Of a stretch of 64,000 nt of DNA, positions 1 through 14,525 are shown piece by piece. The notes under the pieces are model-generated. The model did no database searches. It saw only the letters and a program-made list of their open reading frames with translations, and was not told where the DNA came from. The number at the start of each line of letters is the position of its first letter. The stretch's first letter is position 1. The stretch spans positions 132,534 through 196,533 of the forward strand of contig CAWIBR010000008.1 in NCBI GenBank assembly GCA_963834425.1, read 5' to 3'. The DNA comes from an uncultured Actinomycetota bacterium (GTDB lineage: Bacteria; Actinomycetota; Actinomycetes; Actinomycetales; CAVURS01). The translations under genes and the position numbers were made by a program.

Positions 1-613
1 AGATGCAGGATCGGCAGGACCGCGCCGTCGCGCCTGGCGTTCAGGAAGGCGGGCAGCTTCCAGGACGCCGCCAGCGGGCCGGTCTCGGCCTCGCCGTCGC
101 CGACGACGCAGGCGACGATGCAGGTCCGGGTGGTCGAACGCGGCGCCCGCGGCGTGCACCAGGGCGTAGCCGAGCTCGCCGCCTTCGTGGATGCTGCCCG
201 GGGTCTGCACGCTGACGTGGCTCGGGATCCCGCCTGGCGTCGAGAACTGGCGGACCAGGACGTCCAGTCCGGCCAGGTCGGCCGAGACGTGCGGGTAGAT
301 CTCGCTGTAGGTGCCGTCCAGGTAGGCGTTGGCGACCAGCGCCGGGCCGCCGTGACCGGGACCGGTGACGTAGACGACGGCGTGACTCGGTCCGGCGGAT
401 CAGCCGGTTGAGCAGGGTGTAGATCATCGACAGTCCCGGGCTGGTGCCCCAGTGCCCGAGCAGTCGCGGCTTGATGTGCTCGGCCGAGAGTGGTTCGCGC
501 AGAAGCGGATTCGACTTGAGGTAGATCTGCGCGACGGTCAGGTAGTTGGCGGCGGCCCACCAGCGGAGGTCGTCCTGCAGGTCGGCATCGGCGTACGCCT
601 CGATCTGGGACAC
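1..613 (-). pseudogene. xfp: Phosphoketolase (XFP family), 5' part of the gene; runs off the left edge; at least 2 frame breaks (near 120 and 390)
   Basis: ORF 41..613 starts [60 protein letters not shown]. Other minus frames continue with [46 protein letters not shown] and [17 protein letters not shown], all typical phosphoketolase blocks. Confidence 0.8.
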
Positions 614-616
614 CCG

Positions 617-1531
617 TCAAGGTACCGCGACGGCAGCAGGCGACACCGAGGCGACGGACAGCTGGAAGTCGGGGTCGTGCGCACGCGCGTGGTGCGGTGT
701 CGGGACCACGAGGACCGGGCAGGTTTCCTCGGCGAAGGAGACGTAGTGCTCGCATCCCGAGGGAACGACGAGCAGGTCGCCCGGGCCGGTCCGATCCAGC
801 AGGAGGGCGTGGGCCGGGCCTTCGACCACTTCGGAGGTCAGCGGTGCTTCGTTGCCGATCACGGTGCGCAGCGCCGCGACCCACCGTGCACTCTCGTCCA
901 CGACGGCGGCGTGGATCTGCTGGGGGCTGTCCGCGAACATGAGCTCTGGCAGCTGGGGGCTGAGGTCGTAGGACGTCGATGACGTGCACGGGGATCGGGT
1001 GCTGGCCCAGCCACTCTGCGACGTAGGGGTAGGTCTCGCCGTCCGGATCCAGTGTGGCGCTGAGGACCAACCGCTCGGCAGCATTCGGTTGCGCAACCGG
1101 ACCCACCACGACGACCGGACAGTGCGCGCGGTGCAGGCAGTATCGGCTGACACTCCCGCCGAGCAGCCCGACCAGGCCGAGATGTCCGGCCGATCCGATA
1201 ACCAGCAGATCCGCGGTGTGCGACTCATGGACGAGCACCCGGCCCGGGCTCCCCTCGACCGCGATGCCCTGAACCATGACGCGACCGCCGACGATCGAGC
1301 GCATCTTGGCAACTGCGAGCTCGGCGCCGGCCCGAGACCTGGCTTGCCACGCGGTCAGTTCGGGCAGACTCCACGGAGGGATGGGGCTCGGATCCCAGGC
1401 GGTCACGACATGGAGCCCGAGGCCCCGCGCCCTGGCCTCGGCCGCGGCCCAGCTGACCGCGACCCGCGCCGTTGCCGAGCCGTCGTACCCCACGGTGATG
1501 TGGGCTGGACCGGTCCGTCATCGGGCGTCAT
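617..1531 (-). pseudogene. Universal stress protein, two UspA domains; frame breaks near 1510 and 990
   Basis: Minus-strand pieces read [58 protein letters not shown], then ..[43 protein letters not shown] lies 6 nt before the ATG at 1531. The exact start is uncertain. Confidence 0.65.
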
Positions 1532-1592: not shown

Positions 1593-1606
1593 GGGTCGAA
1601 GGTCCC
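1593..1606. promoter_or_regulatory. Candidate DosR/DevR box GGGTCGAAGGTCCC, 62 nt upstream of the USP-phosphoketolase unit
   Basis: Palindrome-like 14-mer in the gap between the ADH stop and the USP start. It is one of five related sites and resembles the M. tuberculosis Dos box core GGGACTWWAGTCCC. Confidence 0.45.
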
Positions 1607-1624
1607 GAGCGCAACGGCCGGTGG

Positions 1625-2630
1625 TCAGGCGTGCAGGACGGCGGCCCCGTCGTAGGCGCCGTGGGCGAGATCACGCAAGGCGCGGTCGGCCTCGTCCATC
1701 GGGTAGGCGTGGGTCGTGGCCCGCACGCCGAACCGGTCGGCCAGCCGCAGGAACGTCTCCCCATCGTGGCGCGTGTTGGCTGTGACGCTACGAAGTCGGC
1801 GCTCCTGGAACAGGTCGGCGTCGTAGTTCAGGGCCGGGATGTCGGAGAGCCAGATGCCGGCCACCGCCAAGCGTGCCGCCGCGCTCGAGTGCCGCGCAGG
1901 GCGGCCGGCACAAGCTCGCCCGCCGGTGCGAACAGGATCGCGCCGTCGAGCGGCTCCGGGGGTGCGGCGTCGGCGGCCGCCGACCGAGTCGACCCCGAGA
2001 GAGGCGGCCAGGTCGCGGTTGGCCGGTCCGCGGGTCAGGACGTGCACGCGCATGCCCGAGGTGCGAGGGCGACCTGCGCGGTCAGGTGAGCGCTCCCGCC
2101 GAAGCCGTAGATGCCGAGGCGCGCCCCCCGGTGGCACCGCAGCGGCAGTCAGCGCGCGGTAGCCGATGATGCCGGCGCACAGCAGGGGCGCCGCCTGCTC
2201 GTCGTCGATCGTCGGCGGCAGGGCGTAGGCGAAACCCTGGTCGACCAGGCACTGGTCGGCGTACCCGCCGTCGACATCCCATCCGGTGAAGAGCGGTGCG
2301 AGACAGAGGTTCTCATCGCCACGGCGACAGAACCGGCAGGTGTCGTCGGTGCCGCCGAGCCAGGGCACGCCAATCCGCTGCCCGACCGCGAACCGGGCCG
2401 CCCCGTCGCCCCGCCCGATCGACGGTCCCGACGACCTCGTGGCCCGGCGTCACTCGCGGGCGCTTGGGCGCCAGGTCGCCCTCGGCCAGGTGGAGGTCGG
2501 TGCGGCACACGCCGCAGCAGCTGACCTGGACGAGCAGCTGGCCCGGACCGGGCGCGGGCGGCTCGCGGTCGACCCGCACGAGCGGCGCGCTGTCGATCGG
2601 TCCCGGCCGGTCCACGACCCAGGCCCTCAT
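1625..2630 (-). pseudogene. Zn-dependent alcohol dehydrogenase (MDR family); at least 2 frame breaks
   Basis: N-terminus MRAWVVDRPGPID..LLVQVSCCGVCRTDLHLAEGDL..VTPGHEVVG. Middle GGTDDTCRFCRRGDENLCL..AAPLLCAGIIGYRAL. C-terminus RSVTANTRHDGETFLRLA..PMDEADRALRDLAHGAYDGAAVL. The pieces lie in three minus frames. Confidence 0.8.
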
Positions 2631-2761
2631 GCCGCGCTCGCTCCGGACCTCATCAGTCCAGCATCCTCCGTCTGGCTGCGCCAGGCGTCGCGGTACCAGC
2701 CCGGTTCCCGCACCACTGCCGCCGCCCTCGGCCCGAACTTGGGCCATTGGGCTGGCCGGCA

Positions 2762-2775
2762 GGGACCAAAGACCG
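2762..2775. promoter_or_regulatory. Candidate DosR/DevR box GGGACCAAAGACCG in the ADH / CBS-USP divergent region
   Basis: Weaker member of the five-site family. It lies between the ADH start (2630) and the CBS start (2846). Confidence 0.35.
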
Positions 2776-2845
2776 TGTCCTTCCACTTGTGCATCCGCAC
2801 GATGGAGGTGAGGCAGGCGACCGAAGTCGACGCGAGGAGCCCACT

Positions 2846-3264
2846 GTGCTGGTCCGAGAGATCATGACCCAACCGGTCGTCACGGTGACACCCGAGACTT
2901 CAGTGGCCGATGCGCTGGCGCTAGTAGCCGTCATCAGATCAGCGACCTGCCCGTCGTCGTAGACCACGTGGTCGTGGGGATGGCCAGCGAGATCGACCTG
3001 ATCCGCTTTGCCGTGCCCCTGGACCCCCGCTCGAGGCATGCGATCGTGCCGTCCGGATCGGCCAAGTACAGCAAGTTGGTCAAGCAGGTGATGAGCGCCA
3101 AACCCTATGTGGTCCAGGGGGACTCCGATGTGTCCGATGTCGTGCGCACTCTGGACCTGATGCGCTGGAAGTCGGTGCCGGTCGTCGAGAACGGCGAGCT
3201 TGTCGGAATCGTCACCCGGGGTGACGTCGTACGCGCACTGGTGCCCGAGGAGAGCAGCCCATGA
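2846..3264 (+). pseudogene. CBS-pair domain protein; frame break near 2920
   Basis: GAGGAG lies 6 nt before the GTG at 2846. VLVREIMTQPVVTVTPETSVADALAL, then after a +1 shift HQISDLPVVVDHVVVGMASEIDLIR...MSAKPYVVQGDSDVSDVVRTLDLMRWKSVPVVENGELVGIVTRGDVVRAL. Confidence 0.7.
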
Positions 3265-4167
3265 CCGGGCGCCCGCTGCGGACCGAGACGCAGCCTGTCG
3301 TTGTCGGTTTCGACGGATCGCAGGCCGCAGCCCGGGCAGTCGAGGTCGCCGCGGACGAGGCCGGCCGGCGTGGAACCAGCCTCGTCGTGCTCGTCGTCGC
3401 CGGCTCCTCGCACTTGTGGTCCGACAGCGTCGAGGAGCTCTACGGCGATGCTCGTGCGGCCCTGCGCTGGGCGACCGCGACCAGCGCGATGCGGCGGTGC
3501 GCCAGGCCGCGCAGCGGTGTCCCGAGCTGCTGGTCGATGCGGTGGTCTGTCAGGAGTTGGAGTCGCCGGAGATCGTTGCGCCTTGGCGATCGCGCTCAAC
3601 TGCTGGTCCTCGGCGGCAGGGGGCGACGTGGCCAGATGTGTCTGCAGGCAGGCGCGACCAGCGCCGAGTTGGCGCTCGCCTTCGGGTGTCCTGTCCTGGT
3701 CACCCATCACCGGGCGAGTCCGGCGCGCGAGCGATCCGGAGGATCGCAACGGTTCCGCGACAGACCGACCAGGTGGGCCGGTAGTCGCGGCGGTGGACGG
3801 CCGGGAGAGCTCGGTCGCCGTGCTCATGGCGGCGGCCAGCGAATGCCGCCTCCGCGACCAGGCCCTCGTCGCGGTCCACGCAGTGGGCACGTCGCCGACG
3901 GCTCCGCAGCATCTGGCCGACAAATGCTCGGCGGCTGTTCGACGACGCCGTGACCTCCATGGGTCCCGGGCGCTCCGACCGGCTGTTGTTTGCAGCCGGA
4001 ACGTCCGGCGACGCGCCCTGACCGGTAACACGCGGCCGGAGGACCTCCTCGTTATCGGGACCCACTCCCGTGGGCGGATGCGCGCCGGCGACTCGGGTGG
4101 GGTGATCCGGCAGGTACTTGATCAGGCGCCCTGCGATGTCCTCGTCGTCCCGTCGGCCCTCGCCTGA
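3261..4167 (+). pseudogene. Universal stress protein, two UspA domains; frame breaks
   Basis: ATGA overlap with the CBS gene. N-terminus PVVVGFDGSQAAARAVEVAADEAGRRGTSLVVLVV. C-terminus in another frame VVAAVDGRESSVAVLMAAA...LLVIGTHSRGRM..GGVIRQVLDQAPCDVLVVP. Confidence 0.7.
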
Positions 4168-4179
4168 CCGGTCTGGCAC

Positions 4180-4843
4180 CTACGCCGAGGACGGCGAGCC
4201 GCTCTGGTCGCTGTCCTTGAGGCCGGCGGCGAAGACCGCCGCCTGCGTCCGGCTGGACATGCCGAGCTTGGCGAGCAGGCTGGAGACGTAGTTCTTCACC
4301 GTCTTCTCGGCCAGGAACATCTCCTCGCCGATCTGCCGGTTGGTCTTGCCCTCGGCGATGTGGTCGAGGATGCGGCGCTCCTGGTCGGTGAGCCCCTTGA
4401 GCCGCGGGTCCATGCTCGGGCCCGTTGCGCAGCCGCTCCAGCACCCGGGCCGTGACCGCCGGGTCGAGCAGTGACTGGCCGGCCGCTACGCGCCGTATGG
4501 CGTCGACCAGGTCGGTGCCGCGGATGTCCTTGAGCACGTAGCCGGACGCGCCGGCCATGATCGCCGCGAACAGCGCCGCGTCCTCGTCGAACGACGTCAG
4601 GATCAGCGCGTGCACGCTGGGGTCGATCGAGCGCACGTCGCGGCAGACGTCGATACCGGATCCGTCGGGGAGCCGGCCGTCGAGCACCGCGACGTCGGGG
4701 CGCAGCGCCGGGATGCGCCGCGTGGCCTCAGCGGCCGACCCCGATTCGCCGACCACCTCGATGTCGGGTTCGACCTCGAGCAGCTCTCGTAGCCCGCGCC
4801 GGACCACTTCGTGGTCATCGAGCAGGAAGACCTTGATGGTCAT
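4180..4843 (-). pseudogene. dosR: DosR/DevR-type response regulator (NarL/LuxR family); single frame break near 4415
   Basis: MTIKVFLLDDHEVVRRGLRELLEVEPDIEVVGESGSAAEA..RPDVAVLDGRLPDGSGIDVCRD..LILTSFDEDAALFAAIMAGASGYVLKDI, then [61 protein letters not shown]. Near-colinear with the M. tuberculosis DevR sequence as I recall it. Confidence 0.85.
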
Positions 4844-4890
4844 GCGTTCTCCTTCGTCACGTCAAAGCGGAGGCCCGGGCGCTGCTGTCG

Positions 4891-4933
4891 GCACCACTCT
4901 GCCCTCCCGGAGGCCGGGAGGGCAGAGTGGTGC
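4891..4933 (-). terminator. Perfect 20-bp-stem hairpin between the USP stop (4941) and the dosR start (4843)
   Basis: GCACCACTCTGCCCTCCCGG agg CCGGGAGGGCAGAGTGGTGC. No clear U-tract. Confidence 0.55.
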
Positions 4934-4940
4934 GGGCGAA

Positions 4941-5881
4941 TCAGTCGGAGTGGTGCTCACCGTGGACCACGGCGATCGTTCCGGGTCCGTGGCTCACCAG
5001 CTGCTGGCTGACCGACCCGAGCATCAGGCCACGGAAGCCGCCTGCTCCCCGGGAGCCGACCACGATCAGGTCGGGATGCACCCGATGTGCGGCGACGAGC
5101 AAGCCGTCGTAGGCGCTGACGTCGTTGATGATGACGGATTCCATCGACACCTCGGGATAGCGCTCAGCCAACCCGGCGACGGCCTCGGCCACCACCCGTT
5201 CGGCGTCCTGCTCTATCCGGCGCGCCCACTCACCGGCGTCCACGCCCTTGGGCATCCGCCCGCTGAGGGCGCCCAAGTCCTTGGGGCCCCAGGCCGACGT
5301 CGCGACCACGGGTACGCCGCGCCGGCCGGCTTCGGCGAACGCGAAGTCCACTGCGTTCCGCGAGAAGGTCGAACCGTCCACTCCGACCAGGACCGGCCCC
5401 TTGCCGGGGAGCTCGACCGGCGCCGAAGCGGGCCGGTCGCCTTCCTGGGGCGGCCGGACGACGATGACCGGGCACATGGCGTGCGCCGCGGTCTGGGCGG
5501 CCACCGAGCCGGCGAAGAGCTGATGGACCATCCCGTGCCCGCGTGAGGCCACCACGACGAGGGCCGCGGTCTGCGAGGCGTCGACCAAGGCGCGCCGCGC
5601 CGGACCAGCGCCGGACGCGGCCGGTCACCAACAGGTCGGGATGTGCGGTGCCGACCTGCTCGCAGAGCTCGGCCAGCTTGGCCTCGGCCGCGTTGAGCAT
5701 CGCGGTGTCGTAGCCGGTGATGGCCGGTACGCCGCGGCTGGCCGACTTCGTCGGAGCCGTGGATCAGGTGCAGGTCGCGGTGCTGCTGCTCCGCCTGCCA
5801 CGCGCCGTAGTCGATCGCGGTCTGGCTGGGGGCGGAGAAGTCCACCCCGACCACTACCGGACCGCTGGTGTCGTGTGCCAT
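4941..5881 (-). pseudogene. Universal stress protein, two UspA domains; at least 2 frame breaks (near 5740 and 5600)
   Basis: N-terminus GPVVVGVDFSAPSQTAIDYGAWQAEQQHRDLHLIHG. Middle MLNAAEAKLAELCEQVGTAHPDLLVTG. C-terminus ALVVVASRGHGMVHQLFAGSVAAQTAAHAMCPVIVV...VLVGVDGSTFS...LIVVGSRGAGGFRGLMLGSVSQQLVSHGPGTIAVV. Confidence 0.7.
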
Positions 5882-5882
5882 G

Positions 5883-6404
5883 TCAGTTCCTTCCGTTTCG
5901 GTTGGGGTGGTGCGGTTCTCGGAGCGGACCCGCTCGAGTCGTCATTCGGGGGCAGCGCGTCGCGCCGAGGTCACCGCGGTGTCCCATGCGTGCGGTATCC
6001 GCGACGGTGAACCGCCGCCCGGTGATCTCGCTCGGGGTGATCCGGGCCACTCGGTCCTTGTGACCAGCCTGCTCCGGATGGAGGGGGAGTTCGGCCACCG
6101 CGAGGCTGTCGTAGAGGCCACTGATCTCCCGGGCGGCGCCCTTGACGATGACGCTCCAGGCGAGCCCGTCGGTGTGGCCGTCGACCTCGAAGGCCACCGG
6201 GCGGCCGTCGAGCGCCGAAGCGATCCTCGAGTGCACGCCGGTGCGGAAGACGACCGTGCCCCCATCGGTGACGTAGTTGATCGGGAAGATCTCCGGCTGG
6301 CCGTCGACCGCGAAGCTCAGTCGGCCGAGGTTGGTACTGCGAAGTGCGGCCCAGCACTCCGGAGGCTGAATCTGTGCGATCTGCGGCGAGTCGTCGATGG
6401 GCAT
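5883..6404 (-). CDS. Pyridoxamine 5'-phosphate oxidase-like (PPOX/FMN-binding split-barrel) family protein
   Basis: MPIDDSPQIAQIQPPECWAALRSTNLGRLSFAVDGQPEIFPINYVTDGGTVVFRTG..VAFEVDGHTDGLAWSVIVKGAAREI...ITGRRF. Paralogue of 11656..12102. The start is 4 nt after the upstream USP stop. Confidence 0.7.
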   Translation of the reverse strand: MPIDDSPQIAQIQPPECWAALRSTNLGRLSFAVDGQPEIFPINYVTDGGTVVFRTGVHSRIASALDGRPVAFEVDGHTDGLAWSVIVKGAAREISGLYDSLAVAELPLHPEQAGHKDRVARITPSEITGRRFTVADTARMGHRGDLGATRCPRMTTRAGPLREPHHPNRNGRN

Positions 6405-6408
6405 GTCC

Positions 6409-6876
6409 TCAGCCGTCCTTCGCGACGCCGCGGTCGCCATGGACGACGAGCACCGGGCAGGTCGCGTGTTCCGCGACGCTCGAGCTGACCGATCCCAGGA
6501 GGAGTCCGGCGAACCCGCCGTGCCCGCGGCTGCCGACGATGAGCATCAGCGCGTCCCGGCTACGGTCCAGCAACACCTCAGCGCTGTTGCCCTGGCCGAC
6601 CAGGAGCTCGATGCCGATCGGGCGGTGGGGCCCGAAGACCTCGTCGACGGCCTCGGTGAGTGCTTTCGTCGTGTCCTCGGCCGGGTCCCACGGGAAGGCG
6701 GAGCCGCTGATCCCGTAGCCGATCGGAATGTGCCACGCCGCGATTGCCGTGATCTCGGCGTCCAGCGCGCCGGCGATCTGACCGGCCCAGCGCAGGGCTT
6801 GCTTGGACGGCTCGGATCCGTCGACCCCGACGACAATGCGCCGCTGTCTCTGGGTGCTCTGGGTGGTGGTCATCAT
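6409..6876 (-). CDS. Universal stress protein, single UspA domain (intact)
   Basis: MMTTTQSTQRQRRIVVGVDGSEPSKQALRWAGQIA...LMLIVGSRGHGGFAGLLLGSVSSSVAEHATCPVLVVH. Confidence 0.85.
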   Translation of the reverse strand: MMTTTQSTQRQRRIVVGVDGSEPSKQALRWAGQIAGALDAEITAIAAWHIPIGYGISGSAFPWDPAEDTTKALTEAVDEVFGPHRPIGIELLVGQGNSAEVLLDRSRDALMLIVGSRGHGGFAGLLLGSVSSSVAEHATCPVLVVHGDRGVAKDG

Positions 6877-6922
6877 GCTCGCCCCTTCCTGGGGTTGTTC
6901 CTGTCTCGTTCCCTGTGAGTGG

Positions 6923-9648
6923 TCATCTGAGGTGCCGGACGCGGTCGAGCAGCACGGGTGCCGGCGCCGGACGGATCCGCACCCGGACGTCGACCGCGAG
7001 GGTCGCGTCCGGCCGGGCCAGCACCGGGTTGAGGTCGATCTCGGTGATCTCCGGCAGCTCGGCGACCAGTTGCGAGATCCGGACGGCAACGTCGGCCAGC
7101 CGGTCCAGGTCCGCGGCCGCGCGGCCGCGGCGGGCACCGAGCGATGGCAGGCAGCGCAGCTGGCCGATCATCTGCCGGGCTGTGGCGTGGTCGAGCGGCG
7201 CCATGGCCCAGCAGCGGTCGGGATCGACATCACTGTCCACGCCACCGCGGCCGACCATCAGCAGGGGTCCGAACCGGGGGTCGCGGGTCGCGCCGATGAT
7301 GATCTCCACGCCCGAGCTCACCTGGCTCTGGACGATCACTGCCGTGCAGCCGGTCGCCAAGTGTGGCGGCCATGTCGGCCACGGCGACCCGCACCTGGTC
7401 GGGGTCGGTCAGGCCCAGTCGCACCGCGCCGACGTCGGACTTGTGGACCAGCTCCGGGCCGTCGCCCTTGGCGACGACCGGGAAGGTGAGCAGGCTGCTC
7501 GCCTCGGCTGCGGTCTCGGCGTCGTCCGCCGTCACATAGGGCGCGGTCTCGACGTCCACCGCATGCAGCAAGCGGTACGCCGCGAGGGCGGGCATCCAGC
7601 CCTCGCCCTGTTGGCCCAGGACGACCTCCACCTCGTCGCGGGCCGCCTGGATCTGGCTGGTGGTCAGTGCGTCCCCGGTGTGGGCGGTGTCGCGGCGGGT
7701 CGCGTAGCCGTGCAGCAGGGCGACCGCTCGCACGGCGTCCTCGGGCTGGTCGAAGTGCGGCACGGTGCCCCGCCACTGCGTGTCGTCACCGAAGACGCAC
7801 GCGGCCATCGTCGTGGTCGGGTGGTCGGCGCACACCTGGTCGAGCGCGGAGACGAGATCGGGACCGGGCACGTTGCCCAACACGGTCAGGACCGCGACCA
7901 CCACGTCCACGCCCGGATCCGCGGCCACGAGCTGCATGGTCTCGGCCAGCTCAGCCGGCGAGGCGGCGGCCGTGACGTCGACCGGGCCGCCGACGGCGGC
8001 TGTCGGCGGCAGCAGCGCTCGGAGCCGGTCCTGGGTCTGCGGATCGAGCCGCGCGACCTCGAGCCCGTAGGTGCCGCAGGCGTCAGCCGCTAGCACGGCC
8101 GGACCGCCTGAGTTGCCGACGATCGCGACCCGAGCGCCGGTCGGCAGCGGCTGCATGCCGGCCAGTGCAGACACGTCGGCCAGCGTGCGCAGGTCGTCGA
8201 CCCGGATGATGTTGGCGTTGCGGCACAGGGCATCCACGGCGGCGTCGTCGTCGGCCGCGGCGGCGGTGTGGCTGCTCGCGGCGGCTGCTGCAGCGGCTGT
8301 GCGCCCGGCCTTCAGCAGGACGATGGGCGTGCTCGCCGAGACGGTCTCGCGCCAGCCGGGCGAAGGCCATCGGCTCGGCGATCGACTCGAGATAGGCGGC
8401 GATGACCCGGGTGCGGGCGTCGTGCTGCCACCAGGGCAGGACATCGTTGCCGCCGACGTCGGCCTTGTTGCCGACGGTCACCAGGCTGGAGACTCCCGCT
8501 CCCCGGCTCCGCAGCGCCTCCAGCATCGCGACGGCGGCGGCGCCGGACTGGGAGAGCACGCCGGTGGTGCCCGGCTGGAGGGTCTCGGGCAGGAAGGTCG
8601 CGTCGAGCCCGATCGCGGGGTCGGTGTTGGCGACCCCGATGCAGTTGGGCCCGACCAGTCGCATGCCGGCGTCGCGGCAGATGCGCACGCAGGTCGGCCT
8701 GATCGGCGCGGCCCTCGGGGCCGGCCTCGCCGAAACCCGCGGTCAGCGCCAGCAGCGCGCGCGTCCCCGACGCAGCGCAGTCGAGCGCGACCGAGCGCAC
8801 GGCGGAGGTGTTGACCGCCACGACCACCAGGTCGACGGGCTGAGGGATCTCGCGCACGGAGCTGAATCCCGGCACCGAGCCGACGGACACGCCCTGCGGG
8901 TTGACGGCGAACAGCCGGCCGGTGAAGCCGGACCGGAGCAGGTGGTCGAGCACTTGGCGCCCGACGGTGTGCCGATGCTGGCCGGCCCCGACGACGGCGA
9001 TGGACGTGGGTGCCAGGACATGGTGGAGGGAGGCGACCTCGGCCCGGGACTGGCGATCGGCGACCCGGTCGATCACCTCGTCGACCGCCCGGACAGCGCA
9101 ATGAACTCGCACCTCGCCACTGTCGAACTCGTTGGCCACCACGAAGCCGGAGTCCTGGAAGACGCGGAGCATGGCGCGGTTGGCCGACATCACCAGGGCG
9201 ACGACCGTGTCGAAGCCCAGCAGGCGAGCCCGACTCAGCAGGTCCTCCAGGACCAACGTGCCCAAGCCGTCGCCGTGGCGACGGTCGGCGACCAAGAGGC
9301 CGAACTCGGCCTCGCGAGGCCCGCCATCGGTCGCCGGACAGGGGTGCAGAGAACCGATCGCGACCACCGACCCCCGGTCCACGACAACGACCGCGGCACA
9401 GGTCTCGTCGGCGTCTGCGAGGAGCTCGACGTAGGCCTCGCCGGCTCGCCGCGAGACAGTGAAGAACCGGTAGTAGGAGCTCTGCTCGGTCGCCTCCGCG
9501 AGCAGCGCCCGGACCGCAGGCGCGTCGGTGTCGACGTACGGCCGGAGCTCGACGGCCAGGCCGGACGCGGTCAGTGCGTCGTACGCACCGGCCGGTCGCG
9601 CCGGGGGACGGCTGGCCGTGCTGGGCCGGTCGACGGTGCTGCTGGACA
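6923..9648 (-). pseudogene. GNAT acetyltransferase fused to an ADP-forming acyl-CoA synthetase (Pat-like protein acetyltransferase architecture); at least 3 frame breaks (near 8690, 8345, 7350)
   Basis: GGAG lies 7 nt before the GTG at 9648. GNAT part LRPYVDTDAPAVRALL..YYRFF..FGLLVADRRHGDGLGTLVLEDLLSRAR..GF. CoA-binding part APTSIAVVGAG...LFAVNP. Then MRLVGPNCIGV, SQSGAAAVAMLE, VTVGNKADV, IVLLKAGRT, VAIVGNSGGPAVLAADA. ATP-grasp tail FPVVAKGDGPELVHKSDVGAVRLGL...IIIGATRDPRFGPLLMVGRGG. Confidence 0.8.
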
Positions 9649-9707
9649 CGGTGGAACTCCGTTCGCTGAGGTGCCTCCAGCCTCGGCCGCGCCGCGACGT
9701 CCGGCGA

Positions 9708-9721
9708 GGGCCGAAAGTCCT
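9708..9721. promoter_or_regulatory. Candidate DosR/DevR box GGGCCGAAAGTCCT in the divergent region between the GNAT-ACS operon and a USP gene
   Basis: Lies between the starts at 9648 (-) and 9828 (+). Member of the five-site family. Confidence 0.4.
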
Positions 9722-9827
9722 GTCCACGGGGGCACCAAGCCCGCTCCGCGATGGCCCACCGGCACCTAGCGTCGAAGTCGTCAACCAGTGCTGACCCAGT
9801 GCTGGCCGCGGAGACATCCGCAGGACC

Positions 9828-10780
9828 ATGCAGCAGAAGGAAGGGCCGGCCATGACCGCTCCAGCAGATCCGCAGGGCGCCGTGCTCGTCGGAGTCGACG
9901 GGTCGAATGACGGCGCGCACGCCGTGACGTGGGGGGCGCGCGAAGCCGCCCGCACCGGCACCCAGCTGCGCATCGTGCACGCTTCGCCCTGGTCGATGCT
10001 CGACCGAGGAGCCGCGTCGGGCAGATCGGGCCTGGGACGAGGCCGGCCTGGCCTCGCCGAGCTCGGCGGATCGTCGAGGCAGCTGCCCGGCACGCGCGCG
10101 AGGTCGAGCCCGACCTCACCGTCGACGCCGAGCTGGTGTGTGGTGTCGGGCCCGCCGCGCTCGCCCAGACGTGCAGTGGCGCCGCCACCGTGGTCGTCGG
10201 CCGTCGCGGTCTGGGGACCCAGGGCACCCGCCAGGTCGGCTCCGCCGCCGCAATCCTCGCCGAGCAGATCGATGCGGCGGTGGTCGTCTGCGGCTACGAC
10301 GCGCAGCACAGCCACCTCGGCGGCCACGACGGCCCCGTGGTCGTCGGCGTCGACAACCCCGTCCGATCCGACTGCAGCTCCGACCAGCGGCGCGTCCTGG
10401 ACACGGCGTTCGCGCTCGCCGACCGGCTGTCCGCAGGCCTACGCGTCGTGCACGCGTGGAACGACGCCGACTGGGGTCCAGGTGACCCCCTTGCCGAGTA
10501 CATGAGCGACTGGCCGACCGCAAAGAAGGACGCCCAGGTCTCGCTGGAGGACCTGTTGGCCGAGTGGTACCAACGCTATCCAGAGGTTGCGGTCACGGTG
10601 TCAGTCGTCGACAGCCGGCCGGCCCACGCGCTCGTGGGCGCGTCGACCGGCGCGACTGTCGTCGTGGTGGGTGGCTGCGGTCGGGCCAGCCTGCCCGGCA
10701 GTCGGTTCGGGCCGGTGGCCCGGCGGGTCACCACAGGTGCGAACAGCCCGGTGCTCGTGGTGCCCACCAGCGACTGCTGA
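9828..10780 (+). pseudogene. Universal stress protein, two UspA domains; frame break(s) near 10000-10080
   Basis: AVLVGVDGSNDGAHAVTWGAREAARTGTQLRIVHA, then in another frame TVVVGRRGLG...GPVVVGVDNP...LRVVHAW...VVVVGGCGRASLPGSRFGPVARRVTTGANSPVLVVP. Alternative start ATG 9852 (AAGGAAGGG upstream). Confidence 0.7.
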
Positions 10781-10917
10781 GCGGTCGATCGGCGACGACC
10801 GAGCTCCCGTCCGGCCGCGTTGCTCCGCTGAGGCCGGTGATCGCGCGAAATCAGCGCCCGATCACCGGCATGCAGGGAGTACGGCGGCCGAGTGGGAGCA
10901 CGCGGCACAGCGTCGGG

Positions 10918-11524
10918 TCAGGGTTGCGACGGCTCGATGTGGACGCCGACCACGCCTTCCGTGGTCTCCGCGACCGCCTCGGCGATCCGAGTCGTCAGAG
11001 GGCTGTCGGTGTCGGTGACGGTCACGACCCCGTCGTCGACGCTCACCGTGCCGAGCGGGTGGGACTCGCCGTACTCGAAGAACCGCTCGCGCAGGGTGCG
11101 CGCGATCTCGGCGTCCGAGTGGGTGTGGCTGCGCAGGATGTCGGTGACGCTGATCATGCCGACCAGCTCGCCGTGCTCGAGCACGGGCAGACTGGCCAGG
11201 CCGTGCTCGAGCATGATCCGGGCCGCGTGAGCGTCGTCGTCGATCGGGGCGATGACGATGACGTTTCGGGTCATGACGTCGTGGACGAGGTGCGGCGGCT
11301 CCGGCGACGTCCCCGTGGGCAGGGATCAGGTGGGCGCGGGGGTCGTCGATCTCTCGCCCCGCCAGCAGGTCGCGGCGGCTCACGATGCCGATGACGTGAC
11401 CGTCGTCATCGACCACCGGAGCGGCCGTGATGTCGCTGTCGAGCAGCAGCTCGCCGGCGCGGCTGATCGTCGTCTCCGCGCGGACTGTCGCAACGCTGCG
11501 GGTCATCAGCTCCTTGACCAACAT
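10918..11524 (-). pseudogene. CBS-pair plus BON-like domain protein (hypoxic-response-protein-like); frame break near 11290
   Basis: MLVKELMTRSVATVRAETTISRAGELLLDSDITAAPVVDDDGHVIGIVSRRDLL, then MTRNVIVIAPIDDDAHAARIMLEHGLASLPVLEHGELVGMISVTDIL...VSVDDGVVTVTDTD..AEAVAETTEGVVGVHIE. Confidence 0.7.
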
Positions 11525-11584
11525 GGCGTCCTCCTCAGATGGGTTGTCCCTTAGGACGCTAGGTATGAGGTGGGCAGGCGGTCA

Positions 11585-11598
11585 GGGTCGAAAGTCCC
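11585..11598. promoter_or_regulatory. Candidate DosR/DevR box GGGTCGAAAGTCCC between the CBS-BON gene (-) and the PPOX-like gene (+)
   Basis: Best member of the family. A second partial palindrome, GTCCCTTAGGAC, lies at about 11546-11557. Confidence 0.5.
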
Positions 11599-11655
11599 GC
11601 CCGCCCGGGCCTCTGGCCTCACCCGCCCACGCTGAAAGGCGCGGATGCTCGGGAC

Positions 11656-12102
11656 ATGGACGACACGACGAACGAACTCACCCCGGCCGAGAGCTGGCAG
11701 CTGCTCGGCACCAGCGACCTCGGTCGGCTGGCGATGTGTTTCGACGGGGAGCCGGAGATCTTCCCGGTCAACTACGTGATCGCGAACGGCACCGTGGTCT
11801 TCCGGACGGCGGCCGGACTCAAGCACGTCTCGGCGCGGCTCGGCCAGCCGGTCGCGCTCGAGGCCGACGGCGTCGACAGCGACGCGGGTATCGCGTGGAG
11901 CGTCGTGGTGAAGGGGCAGGCGCGCGACGTCACGTCGCAGACCGAGCTCGACTACGTGCGCAAGCTTCCGCTCCGGCCGGCCCATGCCGGTCCGAAGTAC
12001 CTCTTCGTGCGGATCGAGCCGGACACCGTGACCGGCCGCCGGTTCCCGATTGCCGCGGCCGACCGATGGGTGAGCGCCGATCAGGTCTCGACCCGCGAGT
12101 GA
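11656..12102 (+). CDS. Pyridoxamine 5'-phosphate oxidase-like family protein (intact)
   Basis: MDDTTNELTPAESWQLLGTSDLGRLAMCFDGEPEIFPVNYVIANGTVVFRTAAG..ALEADGVDSDAGIAWSVVVKGQARDV...VTGRRF. Clear paralogue of 5883..6404. Confidence 0.8.
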   Translation: MDDTTNELTPAESWQLLGTSDLGRLAMCFDGEPEIFPVNYVIANGTVVFRTAAGLKHVSARLGQPVALEADGVDSDAGIAWSVVVKGQARDVTSQTELDYVRKLPLRPAHAGPKYLFVRIEPDTVTGRRFPIAAADRWVSADQVSTRE

Positions 12103-12195
12103 CCCTCCTGGGAGCCGGGCGGCGGTCGGGTGTCAGCTACCCGGCACGACGAGCCGCACGTGCCGTCGCGAGTGGGCTCCCTGATCGAGGTGCTG

Positions 12196-13045
12196 TCAGC
12201 CGGGGTCCAGGCCGCCCGCGTGGTCGGGCACCGAGCGGAAGAGCTCGCGCGGCGGGCGCTCGTAGTCGGTGGCCACGGGTCGGGCTGGGCAGGTCGACGG
12301 GCGGCCGGTCCACCGCGACGTACGGCACGGTCGAGAGTAGGTGGGCGATCATGTTCAACCGAGCCCGGCGTTTGTCGTCGGCCTCCACGACCCACCACGG
12401 CGACTCGTCGATGTCGGTGTGCACGAACATCTCGTCCTTGGCCCGCGAGTAGTCCTCCCAGCGAGCGATGGACTCGACGTCCATCGGGGAGAGCTTCCAT
12501 CGGCGCATCGGGTCGTCGCGCCGCGACCGGAAGCGGCGCTCCTGCTCGGCGTCGCTCACCGAGAACCAGTACTTGCGCAGCAGGATCCCGTCGTCGACGA
12601 GGAGCCGCTCGAAGACCGGGCACTGGGCGATGAAGCGCCGGTACTCCTGCGGCGTACAGAAACCCATGACCCGCTCGACGACCGCGCGGTTGTACCAGGA
12701 CCGGTCCATCAGCACGATCTCGCCGCCGGCGGGCAGGTGGGCGACGTAGCGCTGGAAGTACCACTGCTGGCGCTCGCGCTCGGTCGGTGCGGGTAGCGCC
12801 ACGATCCGAGCGACGCGAGGGTTGAGGTACTCAGCGACCCGTTTGATGGCGCTGCCCTTGCCGGCTGCGTCGCGACCCTCGAAGAGCACCAGCAAGCGCG
12901 TCCCGGTCTCGCGGACCCACTCCTGCATGATCACGAGCTCGGCCTGCAGGCGGCGCAGCTCGGCTTCGTACGTCGCGCGGCGCAGTCGCGGTCGCGGTTG
13001 GGGTTCCGGCGCTGGTTCAGTCGGCGTTCGCGGCACGGCTGCCAT
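12196..13045 (-). pseudogene. ppk2: Polyphosphate kinase 2 (PPK2); frame break near 12275 close to the 3' end
   Basis: YEAELRRLQAELVIMQEWVRETGTRLLVLFEGRDAAGKGSAIKRVAEYLNPRVARIVALPAPTERERQQWYFQRYVAHLPAGGEIVLMDRSWYNRA...KLSPMDVESIARWEDYSRAKDEMF..TDIDESPWWVVEADDKRRARLN. After the shift the tail reads ARPVATDYERPPRELFRSVPDHAGGLDPG, with the stop at 12196. Confidence 0.85.
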
Positions 13046-13112
13046 TATCCGATGCTGAGACGGGCGGCCTGGGTTACCTGGCCGCCATGTCGGGACCTTC
13101 ACGGGAGGACGC

Positions 13113-13126
13113 GGGACTTTCGGCCC
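13113..13126. promoter_or_regulatory. Candidate DosR/DevR box GGGACTTTCGGCCC (reverse complement GGGCCGAAAGTCCC) between ppk2 (-) and a membrane-protein gene (+)
   Basis: Lies between the starts at 13045 (-) and 13215 (+). Member of the five-site family. Confidence 0.45.
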
Positions 13127-13214
13127 AGTCCCCGGAGACCGGCGGCGACCCAGGATGAAGTCAAGGCACCAGCCACCTCGGCCCGCGCCTCTCACGACAT
13201 CTAAGGAGAAGACC

Positions 13215-13814
13215 ATGAAGCGCACCACCGTCGACAAGCTGGCCGCCGCATCGGGTTCACGATCACCGCGGTCCTCATCGTGTCCGGAGTGCTGCTGACC
13301 TGGGCCCACAACTTTGTGGGCGACCAGGTCAAGACCCAGCTCTCGGCTCAGAAGATCTTCTTCCCGCCCAAGGGCAGCCCGGCCATCGCCGGCCCGAACT
13401 TCACGGCGATGCAGAAGTACGCCGGCCAGCAGCTCACCACCGGCGCGCAGGCCGAGACCTACGCCGACCACTTCATCGCCGTTCACCTCAAGGAGGCCGG
13501 CGGCGGTCAGACCTACGCCCAGCTGAGCACCAAGGCCCAGGCCGACCCCACGAACACCGCGCTGGCCGGACAGGTCGCGACCATGTTCAAGGGTGAGACC
13601 CTGCGCGGCCTGCTGCTCAACGCCTACGCGTTCGGCACGATGGGCACCATCGCCGGGATCGCCGCCATCTTCGCCTTCATCGCCGCCGGACTGATGTTCG
13701 TCCTGTCGGCGCTGGGCCTCTGGCACAGCGGCAAGGCGAAGAAGAACGAGTCGGTCGTCGCCCTGCCGAAGGACAGCAGGCACCGCCACCCGCGAGCCGG
13801 TCACCGTCGCCTGA
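13215..13814 (+). pseudogene. Two-TM membrane protein of unknown function; frame breaks near 13250 and 13780
   Basis: AAGGAG lies 6 nt before the ATG at 13215. MKRTTVDKLAAA, then FTITAVLIVSGVLLTWAHNFVGDQVKTQLSAQKIFFPPKGSPAI...TMGTIAGIAAIFAFIAAGLMFVLSALGLW. The likely true tail ..TREPVTVA ends at the TGA at 13812-13814. Confidence 0.5.
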
Positions 13815-13833
13815 CCGCCAGCTCGACCACTGA

Positions 13834-13861
13834 GCACGGCCCCGCTCACGCGGGGCCGTGC
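13834..13861. terminator. Perfect 12-bp-stem hairpin between convergent genes
   Basis: GCACGGCCCCGC tcac GCGGGGCCGTGC, 20 nt after the stop at 13814 and 26 nt after the convergent stop at 13887. Confidence 0.6.
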
Positions 13862-13886
13862 TTGCGTGGCTCGCGGATCTCCAGGG

Positions 13887-14525
13887 TCAGGCCGCGCGCG
13901 CGAGGTCCAGCGCCGACTGCAAGCTCTGCACGTAGCCGGCACTCGTGTATGACGCGCCGCTCACCGCGTCGATGTGGGATGACTGGGCGGCCAGGGCCTC
14001 CCGGCGCAGGATCGGTGCGGCCTGGGCACTGATCGAGACTGAACGTGAGGAGCTGTCGGTCAGCCGGAGCGCTACGACGTCCGTGATCTTCGTACCGGTC
14101 ATGACCACCCGCACCTGCACGTCGCCGTACGGCGTCTGCACCGTCGCCCCGTTGTAGGACCGCGGTGAGCTGCTGGAGGTGTGCGAGCTGGACGGGCTCG
14201 GCGCGTGCGGGGGTGTCGGGCGGGAGGTTGGCCTCTGGGTGGCCGTCGCCTGAGTGTGCGAGCACGGAGTTGCAGCGCCCGACCGTGGGCCGGACGGAGT
14301 GCTCGATGGTGACCTCGACGACGTTGGCGACGCTGAGATCGGCGAGCTGGATGGTGTGTCCGGCGACGTGCTCGATGGTGACGTTGACGTGCTGTCGGCC
14401 GTGGGCGGCGCGACCACCGTGAGCCCCAGGGCCGTGGTTCGACTGGGGCCCTCGCCAACCTTCCATGCGCCTACCAGCGCGGCGCTGCTCGCCAAAGCCA
14501 CGGCGAAGCCGCTGCCGCGCCTCAT
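13887..14525 (-). CDS. Secreted FMN-binding-domain protein with a Ser/Pro/Thr-rich linker
   Basis: Signal-like N-terminus MRRGSGFAVALASSAALVGA and a long S/T/P linker. C-terminus YNGATVQTPYGDVQVRVVMTGTKITDVVAL...SISAQAAPILRREALAAQSSHIDAVSGASYTSAGYVQSLQSAL matches the FMN_bind pattern. Confidence 0.7.
   Translation of the reverse strand: MRRGSGFAVALASSAALVGAWKVGEGPSRTTALGLTVVAPPTADSTSTSPSSTSPDTPSSSPISASPTSSRSPSSTPSGPRSGAATPCSHTQATATQRPTSRPTPPHAPSPSSSHTSSSSPRSYNGATVQTPYGDVQVRVVMTGTKITDVVALRLTDSSSRSVSISAQAAPILRREALAAQSSHIDAVSGASYTSAGYVQSLQSALDLARAA

Follow-up and report, generated by a model that had tools for sequence, protein, structure and literature searches.

Does a 14-base palindrome that recurs among clustered stress genes, beside a gene for a DevR-like response regulator, mark a DosR/DevR regulon in an actinobacterium, and, if so, how far would that regulon reach and which sensor would drive it? 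The question is posed by the first 13 kb of a 64-kb stretch of DNA (here called the window), which starts at position 132,534 of contig C8 in the genome labelled G000. In total, 4.1 Mb of this genome was searched, and four genomes of the same genus (G001, G002, G003, and G004) served for comparison. To judge from sequence, it is almost certain that the DosR/DevR regulator of this actinobacterium binds the palindrome, a proposal of the initial annotation that is supported by the DevR orthology of the regulator, an identical DNA-reading helix, and the clustering and conservation of the sites. We consider it highly probable that these 13 kb form the right end of a roughly 51-kb DosR/DevR regulon island that works by the mechanism proposed below. 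This reading rests on the orthology of regulator and kinase and on the statistics, placement, and conservation of the box.

The 14-base box and its distribution

All five 14-mers of the initial annotation were recovered with the sequences and at the positions that it had given. At no more than one mismatch to GGGNCGAAAGTCCC, four sites occur in the window (1593, 9708, 11585, and 13113), all within its first 13 kb; dinucleotide shuffles gave an expectation of 0.13 such sites in the window, and no shuffle out of 100 had as many as four. On its own, the loose pattern GGGNCNNNNGNCCC shows no enrichment in the window (6 found, 6.4 expected), and the signal therefore resides in the full motif. The consensus is cCA-GGGcCGAAAGTCCC-g, also written cCA-GGG(c)CGAAAGTCCC-g; CA flanks the majority of boxes on one side, and the GAAAG at the centre lacks symmetry. 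The right half of the operator reads GGGACTT on the other strand, and the left half reads GGGCCGA, relaxed to GGGnCG/C across the sites.

Placement is as selective as sequence. A scan of the gaps in window 1-14.5 kb bore out the claim that boxes stand in the promoter-capable gaps except the one ahead of dosR: the box-bearing gaps are one co-directional gap before an operon and four divergent gaps, with no others. The convergent gaps, the gap ahead of dosR, and the gap at 5855-5991 hold nothing above about 3 bits in this interval.

Genome-wide, 12 sites lie within one mismatch, and 9 of these fall in C8:94,534-145,659, an interval that is 1.24% of the genome (binomial P = 1.5e-15). In a test made independent of the window's own sites, five of the eight remaining sites were in the 38 kb directly left of the window (P = 3.7e-9). 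A 20-nt position weight matrix (PWM) was trained on 13 island sites; its 13 best matches in the 4.1 Mb are the same 13 training sites, so that the rank is partly circular, and no match elsewhere in the genome reaches 19 bits. This genome scan, a check named in the initial annotation, thus placed all of the best matches in the island and upstream of genes, with no genome-wide spread. Eleven of the 13 are fully noncoding and two straddle a gap edge (Viterbi call), in an island that is 18% noncoding. Regulon members outside the island were considered and set aside, as the best outside PWM matches fall in an rRNA region, within coding DNA, or near unrelated genes (haemophore, GGDEF, hemL, bioA/bioF, and kumamolisin), and none is convincing. 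Because the scan gave no convincing sites elsewhere, the predicted regulon is essentially one island (C8:94.5-145.7 kb, roughly 51 kb, 14 boxes), of which the supposed compact 13-kb island is the right-hand quarter. It clusters about 45 genes, including 6 PPOX-like, 2 CBS, and 3 alcohol dehydrogenase (ADH) genes and polyphosphate kinase 2 (PPK2), and 12 of the genome's 15 Usp domain matches are on C8:99.5-153.8 kb.

The boxes are conserved within the genus. In G002, nine of nine sites are in gaps; G001, G002, and G004 keep high-scoring boxes at the orthologous gaps checked (for the 11585 box, in all three), and G003 does so at the gap before the membrane-protein gene behind the 13113 box. G002 also has an orthologous box (C30:42464) ahead of its operon of universal stress protein (USP), phosphoketolase, and acetate kinase genes (USP-xfp-ackA). 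In the four-genome alignment of the membrane-protein gap, the box, a half-site CGGGACCTT, and the Shine-Dalgarno sequence are conserved amid diverged sequence. Taken as a full 14-mer, the half-site has its centre 21 bp (two helical turns) from the centre of the 13113 box, and it is a candidate secondary DosR site. The spacing recalls the primary-plus-secondary box pairs at mycobacterial DevR promoters.

The box is also found beyond the genus. This genome's core PWM was used to scan 80 dosR loci from diverse Actinomycetota (among them Micromonospora, Nocardioides, Dactylosporangium, Frankia, Knoellia, and Acidimicrobiia), whose DosR proteins are 70-84% identical. Matches were present in 62 of the 80 loci (79 matches, compared with 7 in shuffled DNA), and 35 of the 79 are ≤250 nt upstream of dosR. 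The commonest box sequence beside dosR in these loci is GGGCCGAAGGTCCC, and AGGGCCGAAAGTCCCG is a listed predicted OsdR site in Streptomyces coelicolor (PMC5069765). Retention at orthologous gaps and in 62 of 80 loci indicates that the operator travels with dosR. On this distribution the GGGCCGAAGGTCCC-type box, which had been taken by implication for a special variant, is the ordinary actinobacterial, nonmycobacterial form of the predicted Dos box.

The regulator and the sensor kinase

Clean gene models were taken from G002 (contig C30, loci L013-L016), the sole complete same-genus genome. Its DosR matches Mycobacterium tuberculosis DevR (PDB 3C3W) over the full length (E = 1.4e-76), and its matches to VraR and NarL, the families that come next, are weaker by 30-40 orders of magnitude. 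DevR residues D54 (the phospho-acceptor), Q153, K179, T180, K182, N183, Y184, R196, and R197 are kept, as is the VLD motif, and the recognition helix is identical in the window copy, in G002, and in M. tuberculosis DevR. In the DosR transcription activation complex, K179, K182, and N183 read GGGACT, with the box centred near -43.5 (PMC13486717). By these comparisons the window regulator is a DevR orthologue, and tblastn detected no second one in the 83%-complete genome.

As assembled, the window dosR gives a Response_reg Pfam match, with the helix-turn-helix (HTH) in a shifted frame. The gene is split at window position 4412 (minus strand) by one extra base, which is absent from five relatives whose dosR is intact. 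The extra T (coding strand) creates an in-frame ATG that opens an HTH-only open reading frame, and it is not in a homopolymer run. Most genes in the first 13 kb are likewise interrupted by frame changes. Across the whole region the reading frame switches every few hundred bases (third-codon-position GC frame plot and codon-usage Viterbi path), and rpoB (C13:133567-136880) is in at least five frame pieces. The assembly has an estimated completeness of 83% on just 22 contigs, and the same pattern of few contigs and low completeness (53-82%) recurs in three of the four same-genus genomes. Since rpoB is also fragmented, frames shift island-wide, and relatives have an intact dosR, the frame breaks in the window genes, including dosR, are probably assembly indel errors rather than decay, and a reading of the broken genes as pseudogenes was rejected on the same grounds. 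Gene calls in this genome, and any pseudogene reading, warrant caution. A partial second copy of rpoB, besides that on C13, occupies the extreme end of contig C5 (C5:283364-284749) and is likely an assembly duplication or a trace of contamination.

The regulator had been described as an orphan. A kinase gene of GAF-GAF-HisKA_3-HATPase_c architecture (Pfam) is, however, present in the same island at C8:127967-129585 (window -4566 to -2948), 7 kb from dosR and just beyond the window edge. The divergent gap that this gene shares with a PPOX gene holds a perfect box. The GAF-A domain of the G002 orthologue matches DosT (2VZW) at E = 1e-50 and DevS GAF-A at about 1e-45, and its ATP-binding domain matches that of DevS (3ZXO) at E = 6.5e-21. 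The orthologue keeps the stretches HPPMRTFLGVP and NLYLTEK, the parts of DevS in which its proximal His and distal Tyr are found. The island kinase is thus a predicted haem-type, DosS/DosT-like sensor of DosR, and no second kinase of the GAF-GAF-HisKA_3 type was found by tblastn in the 83%-complete genome.

Predicted target genes and the expression of dosR

The genes of the first 14 kb are listed in Table 1 with the boxes that separate them. The gene inventory of the initial annotation stands for the phosphoketolase, the Zn-dependent ADH (Zn-ADH), two CBS-pair genes, two PPOX-like genes, PPK2, the fusion of GNAT and acyl-CoA synthetase (GNAT/ACS), and the DevR-like regulator; the USP genes number five rather than six (four tandem-domain and one single-domain, with 9 Usp domain matches in 1-13 kb). 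The GNAT/ACS fusion carries CoA_binding_2, Succ_CoA_lig, Ligase_CoA_2, and ATP-grasp_5 domains. The oriented side of the 13113 box faces the membrane-protein gene as its predicted target, and the G002 orthologue of this gene is likewise behind a box.

Table 1. Genes, predicted boxes, and other features at the left end of the window, in window coordinates; gene identities are from Pfam and/or tblastn.
Feature	Position	Strand	PWM score	Remarks
Phosphoketolase (xfp), N-terminal part	1..613	-		Gene extends to window -1800, then acetate kinase
Tandem-domain USP	639..1531	-		First gene of USP-xfp-ackA operon
Predicted Dos box GGGTCGAAGGTCCC	1593..1606		24.0	Co-directional gap, Zn-ADH stop / start of USP-phosphoketolase-acetate kinase operon (-)
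Zn-dependent alcohol dehydrogenase	1626..2651	-		Frame-broken
Predicted weak Dos box GGGACCAAAGACCG	2762..2775		14.1	Divergent gap, Zn-ADH (-) / CBS-USP (+)
CBS-pair gene	2933..3270	+		Two CBS stretches
Tandem-domain USP	3291..4152	+		
dosR/devR orthologue (REC + GerE-type HTH)	4193..4843	-		Frame-broken, extra base at 4412
Hairpin, 20-bp stem / 3-nt loop	4891..4933	-		
Tandem-domain USP	4942..5860	-		Directly upstream of dosR; frame-broken
Pyridox_ox_2 (PPOX-like)	5992..6410	-		Pfam
Single-domain USP	6411..6876	-		
N-terminal GNAT fused to NDP-forming acyl-CoA synthetase	6927..9592	-		At least 3 frame breaks
Predicted Dos box GGGCCGAAAGTCCT	9708..9721		22.4	Divergent gap, GNAT/ACS-USP-PPOX-USP-dosR operon (-) / tandem USP gene (+)
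Tandem-domain USP	9882..10774	+		Frame-broken
CBS-pair gene, hrp1/Rv2626c-like	10925..11536	-		
Predicted Dos box GGGTCGAAAGTCCC	11585..11598		25.6	Genome's best score; divergent gap, CBS-pair gene (-) / PPOX-like gene (+)
Pyridox_ox_2 (PPOX-like)	11651..12099	+		
Polyphosphate kinase 2 (PPK2)	12203..about 13000	-		E = 1.5e-104
Conserved half-site CGGGACCTT	13091..13099			Invariant in four-genome same-genus alignment
Predicted Dos box GGGACTTTCGGCCC	13113..13126		23.5	Divergent gap, PPK2 (-) / membrane-protein gene (+, ATG 13215)
Membrane protein	13215..14032	+		No Pfam family

Genes in the left part of the island were read by Pfam on read-through translations. An operon for GAPDH, a 2-oxoacid:ferredoxin oxidoreductase (PFOR gamma, alpha, and beta), and a GltD-like NADPH oxidoreductase (C8:105114-110547, including its box) is headed by GGGCCCAAAGTCCC (one mismatch; PWM score, 25.0), and a gene for a PpsA/pyruvate phosphate dikinase (PPDK)-like enzyme diverges from it. 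C8:105166-110547 had been considered as cydABDC, which is beside dosR in G002, but tblastn and Pfam refuted this assignment in favour of GAPDH-PFOR-GltD-like, and tblastn detected no cydAB in the G000 island. An A/V-type ATPase operon (C8:116042-124171) encodes a stalk subunit and subunits C, I, K, A, B, and D (assigned by Pfam and by reading), with a USP gene behind it; its first ATG (C8:124097) is 60 nt past a box at C8:124158. A DosR-controlled A/V-ATPase would be an unusual target in an actinobacterium. The left part also holds genes for a cytochrome-b-like protein, a PitA/DUF3349 unit, DUF1206 and CHAD proteins, a DeoC-type aldolase, acetate kinase, ABC transporters, and a phosphoribosyltransferase, together with four more PPOX-like genes, two more Zn-ADH genes, and one tandem and one single USP gene.

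In G002, two P-type cation ATPases (ctpF-like; C30:25752-30892, L014) stand behind a box orthologous to that at 13113. A tblastn search detected no counterpart of these in the G000 island, and island content therefore varies within the genus. Also in G002, between dosR and cydABDC (L014 36445-36468), a perfect GGGACTAAAGTCCC box is set within a 24-nt palindrome, CCACCGGGACTAAAGTCCCGGTGG, directly past the dosR stop. This palindrome could be both a DosR site for cydABDC and a hairpin at the 3' end of dosR.

Unlike most of its relatives, the window dosR has no box within 250 nt. The best explanation is cotranscription with the USP gene that precedes it, the arrangement of Rv3134c-devR. The order in G000 is the 9708 box, GNAT/ACS, USP, PPOX, USP, hairpin, and dosR; in G002 it is box, CBS, GNAT/ACS, USP, PPOX, and dosR, contiguous and with only 4 nt ahead of dosR. 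The simplest reading is that dosR would be the last gene of a box-headed operon and, through read-through, autoregulated. The 20-bp-stem hairpin reported between the USP gene and dosR was confirmed: a perfect stem with a 3-nt loop and no U tract lies past the USP stop (4942) and ahead of the dosR ATG (4843). The 126-nt segment that contains it folds at -60 kcal/mol (z = -3.9). G004 has a homologue of the hairpin and G002 lacks one, and the idea of a repeated element was rejected, as no second copy occurs in the genome. Partial termination, RNA processing, and stabilization of an RNA end are all candidate roles for it.

The boxes show a tentative polarity. In six of seven gaps with an unambiguous single target, the CA/TG side of the box faces that target, and it is therefore uncertain whether, as had been suggested, five sites serve nine transcription units. 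A strict orientation rule was not upheld. In the ten gaps with a placeable start, 44-94 nt separate the oriented-side end of the box from the start codon; for the 1593 box, the distance to the ATG at 1531 is 60 nt. Such distances would leave room for a transcription start site about 36 nt past the box, followed by an 8- to 58-nt leader, and they are compatible with a box centred near -43.5. No canonical sigma-70-type -35/-10 promoter was detected in window 1-14.5 kb, as expected if the promoters are activator dependent. A GGATGA/GATG-like element lies at a fixed spacing of about 24 nt (20-28 nt) past the box ends in several promoters (window 13151-13157, C8:100545, and C8:94504). It would occupy the -10 position if the box is at -43.5, but a shared -10-like element is not claimed, as the match is post hoc and not canonical.

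Competing explanations and known systems

We propose the following mechanism. (i) The haem-GAF kinase of the DosS/DosT type, 7 kb from dosR, would sense low oxygen, nitric oxide, or carbon monoxide and phosphorylate DosR. (ii) A dimer of phosphorylated DosR would bind the 14 boxes, reading GGGAC half-sites through the K179/K182/N183 helix, and, we infer, would activate transcription from a class-II-like position with the box centre near -43.5. (iii) The targets in the window would be the USP-phosphoketolase-acetate kinase operon, Zn-ADH, the CBS and USP genes, the GNAT/ACS-USP-PPOX-USP-dosR operon, and the genes for PPOX, PPK2, and the membrane protein. Those to the left would be the GAPDH-PFOR-GltD-like operon, the PpsA/PPDK-like enzyme and aldolase, two ADH genes, the A/V-type ATPase operon, USP and PPOX genes, and the divergent gap of the kinase itself. 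(iv) The hairpin ahead of dosR would probably damp or process read-through.

Several observations weigh against this proposal. As assembled, dosR is a REC-only frame followed by an HTH-only frame, and regulation would differ if this were real. Full termination at the hairpin is conceivable, and dosR would then have no visible promoter. The orientation of the boxes disagrees between one pair, at G000 100575 and G002 52272. At 83% completeness, a second kinase or further boxes may be missing from the assembly. The site at 2762 has three mismatches to GGGNCGAAAGTCCC, and its score is within the genome's noise range. It is nevertheless probably a real, weak site, to judge from its letter-identical retention upstream of the CBS orthologue in G004, where the surrounding DNA is only 69% identical.

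The genome encodes roughly 25 NarL/LuxR-family paralogues, and the many REC-GerE proteins among them, 30-41% identical to DosR (tblastn), raise the prospect that another regulator binds the box and that DosR is merely among its targets. This is very unlikely, given that the DevR recognition helix occurs only in the island's regulator, that the box matches the DevR/OsdR operator, and that it accompanies dosR across 80 loci of other genera, mostly ≤250 nt upstream. Were DosR mainly a repressor or roadblock at the boxes, several short divergent gaps would suit it, as a bound dimer could occlude one promoter. The lack of canonical -35/-10 elements in window 1-14.5 kb is nonetheless what activator-dependent promoters would show, the box-to-start distances of 44-94 nt are compatible with the activator position at -43.5, and at boxes of this kind both DevR and OsdR activate transcription (PMC5069765 and PMC13486717); we regard a mainly repressive role as highly improbable.

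A true split of dosR at 4412 would yield a REC-only protein and a free HTH, with the island constitutively on or uncoupled from the kinase. The inserted T does give an in-frame ATG directly before the HTH and is outside a homopolymer, but frame breaks every few hundred bases (rpoB included), 83% completeness on 22 contigs, and an intact dosR in five relatives make a genuine split hardly credible. The chance that the palindrome is a structural or mobile repeat (like a repetitive extragenic palindrome or a terminator hairpin) instead of an operator is practically negligible: no copy is in a convergent gap of window 1-14.5 kb, where terminators sit, a stable hairpin needs more length than the 5-bp arms and 4-nt centre provide, the box letters are conserved while flanks diverge, and the copies are confined to one island without genome-wide spread. 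What can be said for a repeat is that the box is a GC-rich inverted repeat and that one G002 copy is inside the 24-nt palindrome past the dosR stop.

The proposed activation of a single island by DosR thus remains our preferred reading, and a bolder form of it can be offered tentatively, as a possibility that we consider rather doubtful. In this genus the regulon would have been drawn together into a single island that wires a whole low-oxygen energy module to Dos boxes (phosphoketolase-acetate kinase, GAPDH-PFOR-GltD-like, PpsA/PPDK-like, the GNAT-fused ADP-forming acyl-CoA synthetase, PPK2, and the A/V-type ATPase operon). In this form, dosR, having lost its private box and its kinase partner, would be read through from a 5-kb operon gated by the perfect 20-bp hairpin as a conserved attenuator or processing site.

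The closest comparison is with DevR(DosR)-DevS/DosT of M. tuberculosis. The two systems share an orthologous regulator with an identical DNA-reading helix and a GAF-GAF-HisKA_3 kinase. In both, GGGAC-N4-GTCCC palindromes precede USP genes, CBS-pair (hrp1-like) genes, and other stress genes, and dosR directly follows a USP gene (Rv3134c-devR); the box-to-gene distances here are compatible with the -43.5 position. Unlike in M. tuberculosis, one half-site is relaxed here (GGGnCG instead of GGGACT), regulator and kinase are 7 kb apart on opposite strands in separate operons, dosR lacks a nearby box of its own, and nearly the whole regulon is in one island. The predicted targets also differ in leaning towards fermentative and substrate-level energy metabolism, and they include phosphoketolase-acetate kinase, PPK2, GNAT/ACS, PFOR, the PpsA/PPDK-like enzyme, and the A/V-type ATPase, whereas hspX, an acg-type nitroreductase, tgs1, and nitrate genes of the M. 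tuberculosis regulon were not found in the island.

In S. coelicolor, the core of the OsdK/OsdR regulon (SCO0167-SCO0219) is one chromosomal cluster (Urem et al. 2016; PMC5069765), and the predicted OsdR targets include USPs, Zn-ADH, pyruvate phosphate dikinase, and PPOX (PMC5069765). OsdR is likewise a nonmycobacterial DevR orthologue with a clustered regulon, and its operator AGGGCCGATCGGCCCT shares the GGGCCGA half-site. In contrast to the present island, osdR and osdK are in one operon with a box at -81, and the nitrate reductase and developmental links of the Streptomyces island are not seen here. The present box combines a Streptomyces-type half (GGGCCGA) with a Mycobacterium-type one (GGGACTT).

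Those defining features of DosR/DevR systems that sequence can show are apparent here: a regulator with the same reading residues, a GAF kinase, an operator in promoter gaps that is conserved with dosR, and USP-rich predicted targets. The differences from known DosR systems are of degree, and the island is an expected new example of a well-known regulon, not a new kind of system. It provides a computationally complete and well-documented example of a DosR/DevR regulon in an environmental, flagellated, high-GC actinobacterium, with regulator, kinase, 14 predicted operators, and about 45 genes, and it shows GGGCCGAAGGTCCC to be the common form of the box beyond the mycobacteria. The predicted targets suggest a response that, in soil actinobacteria, centres on substrate-level ATP supply and ion pumping, compared with the nitrate, triacylglycerol, and chaperone theme of the pathogens, and could guide study of how obligate aerobes survive anoxia.

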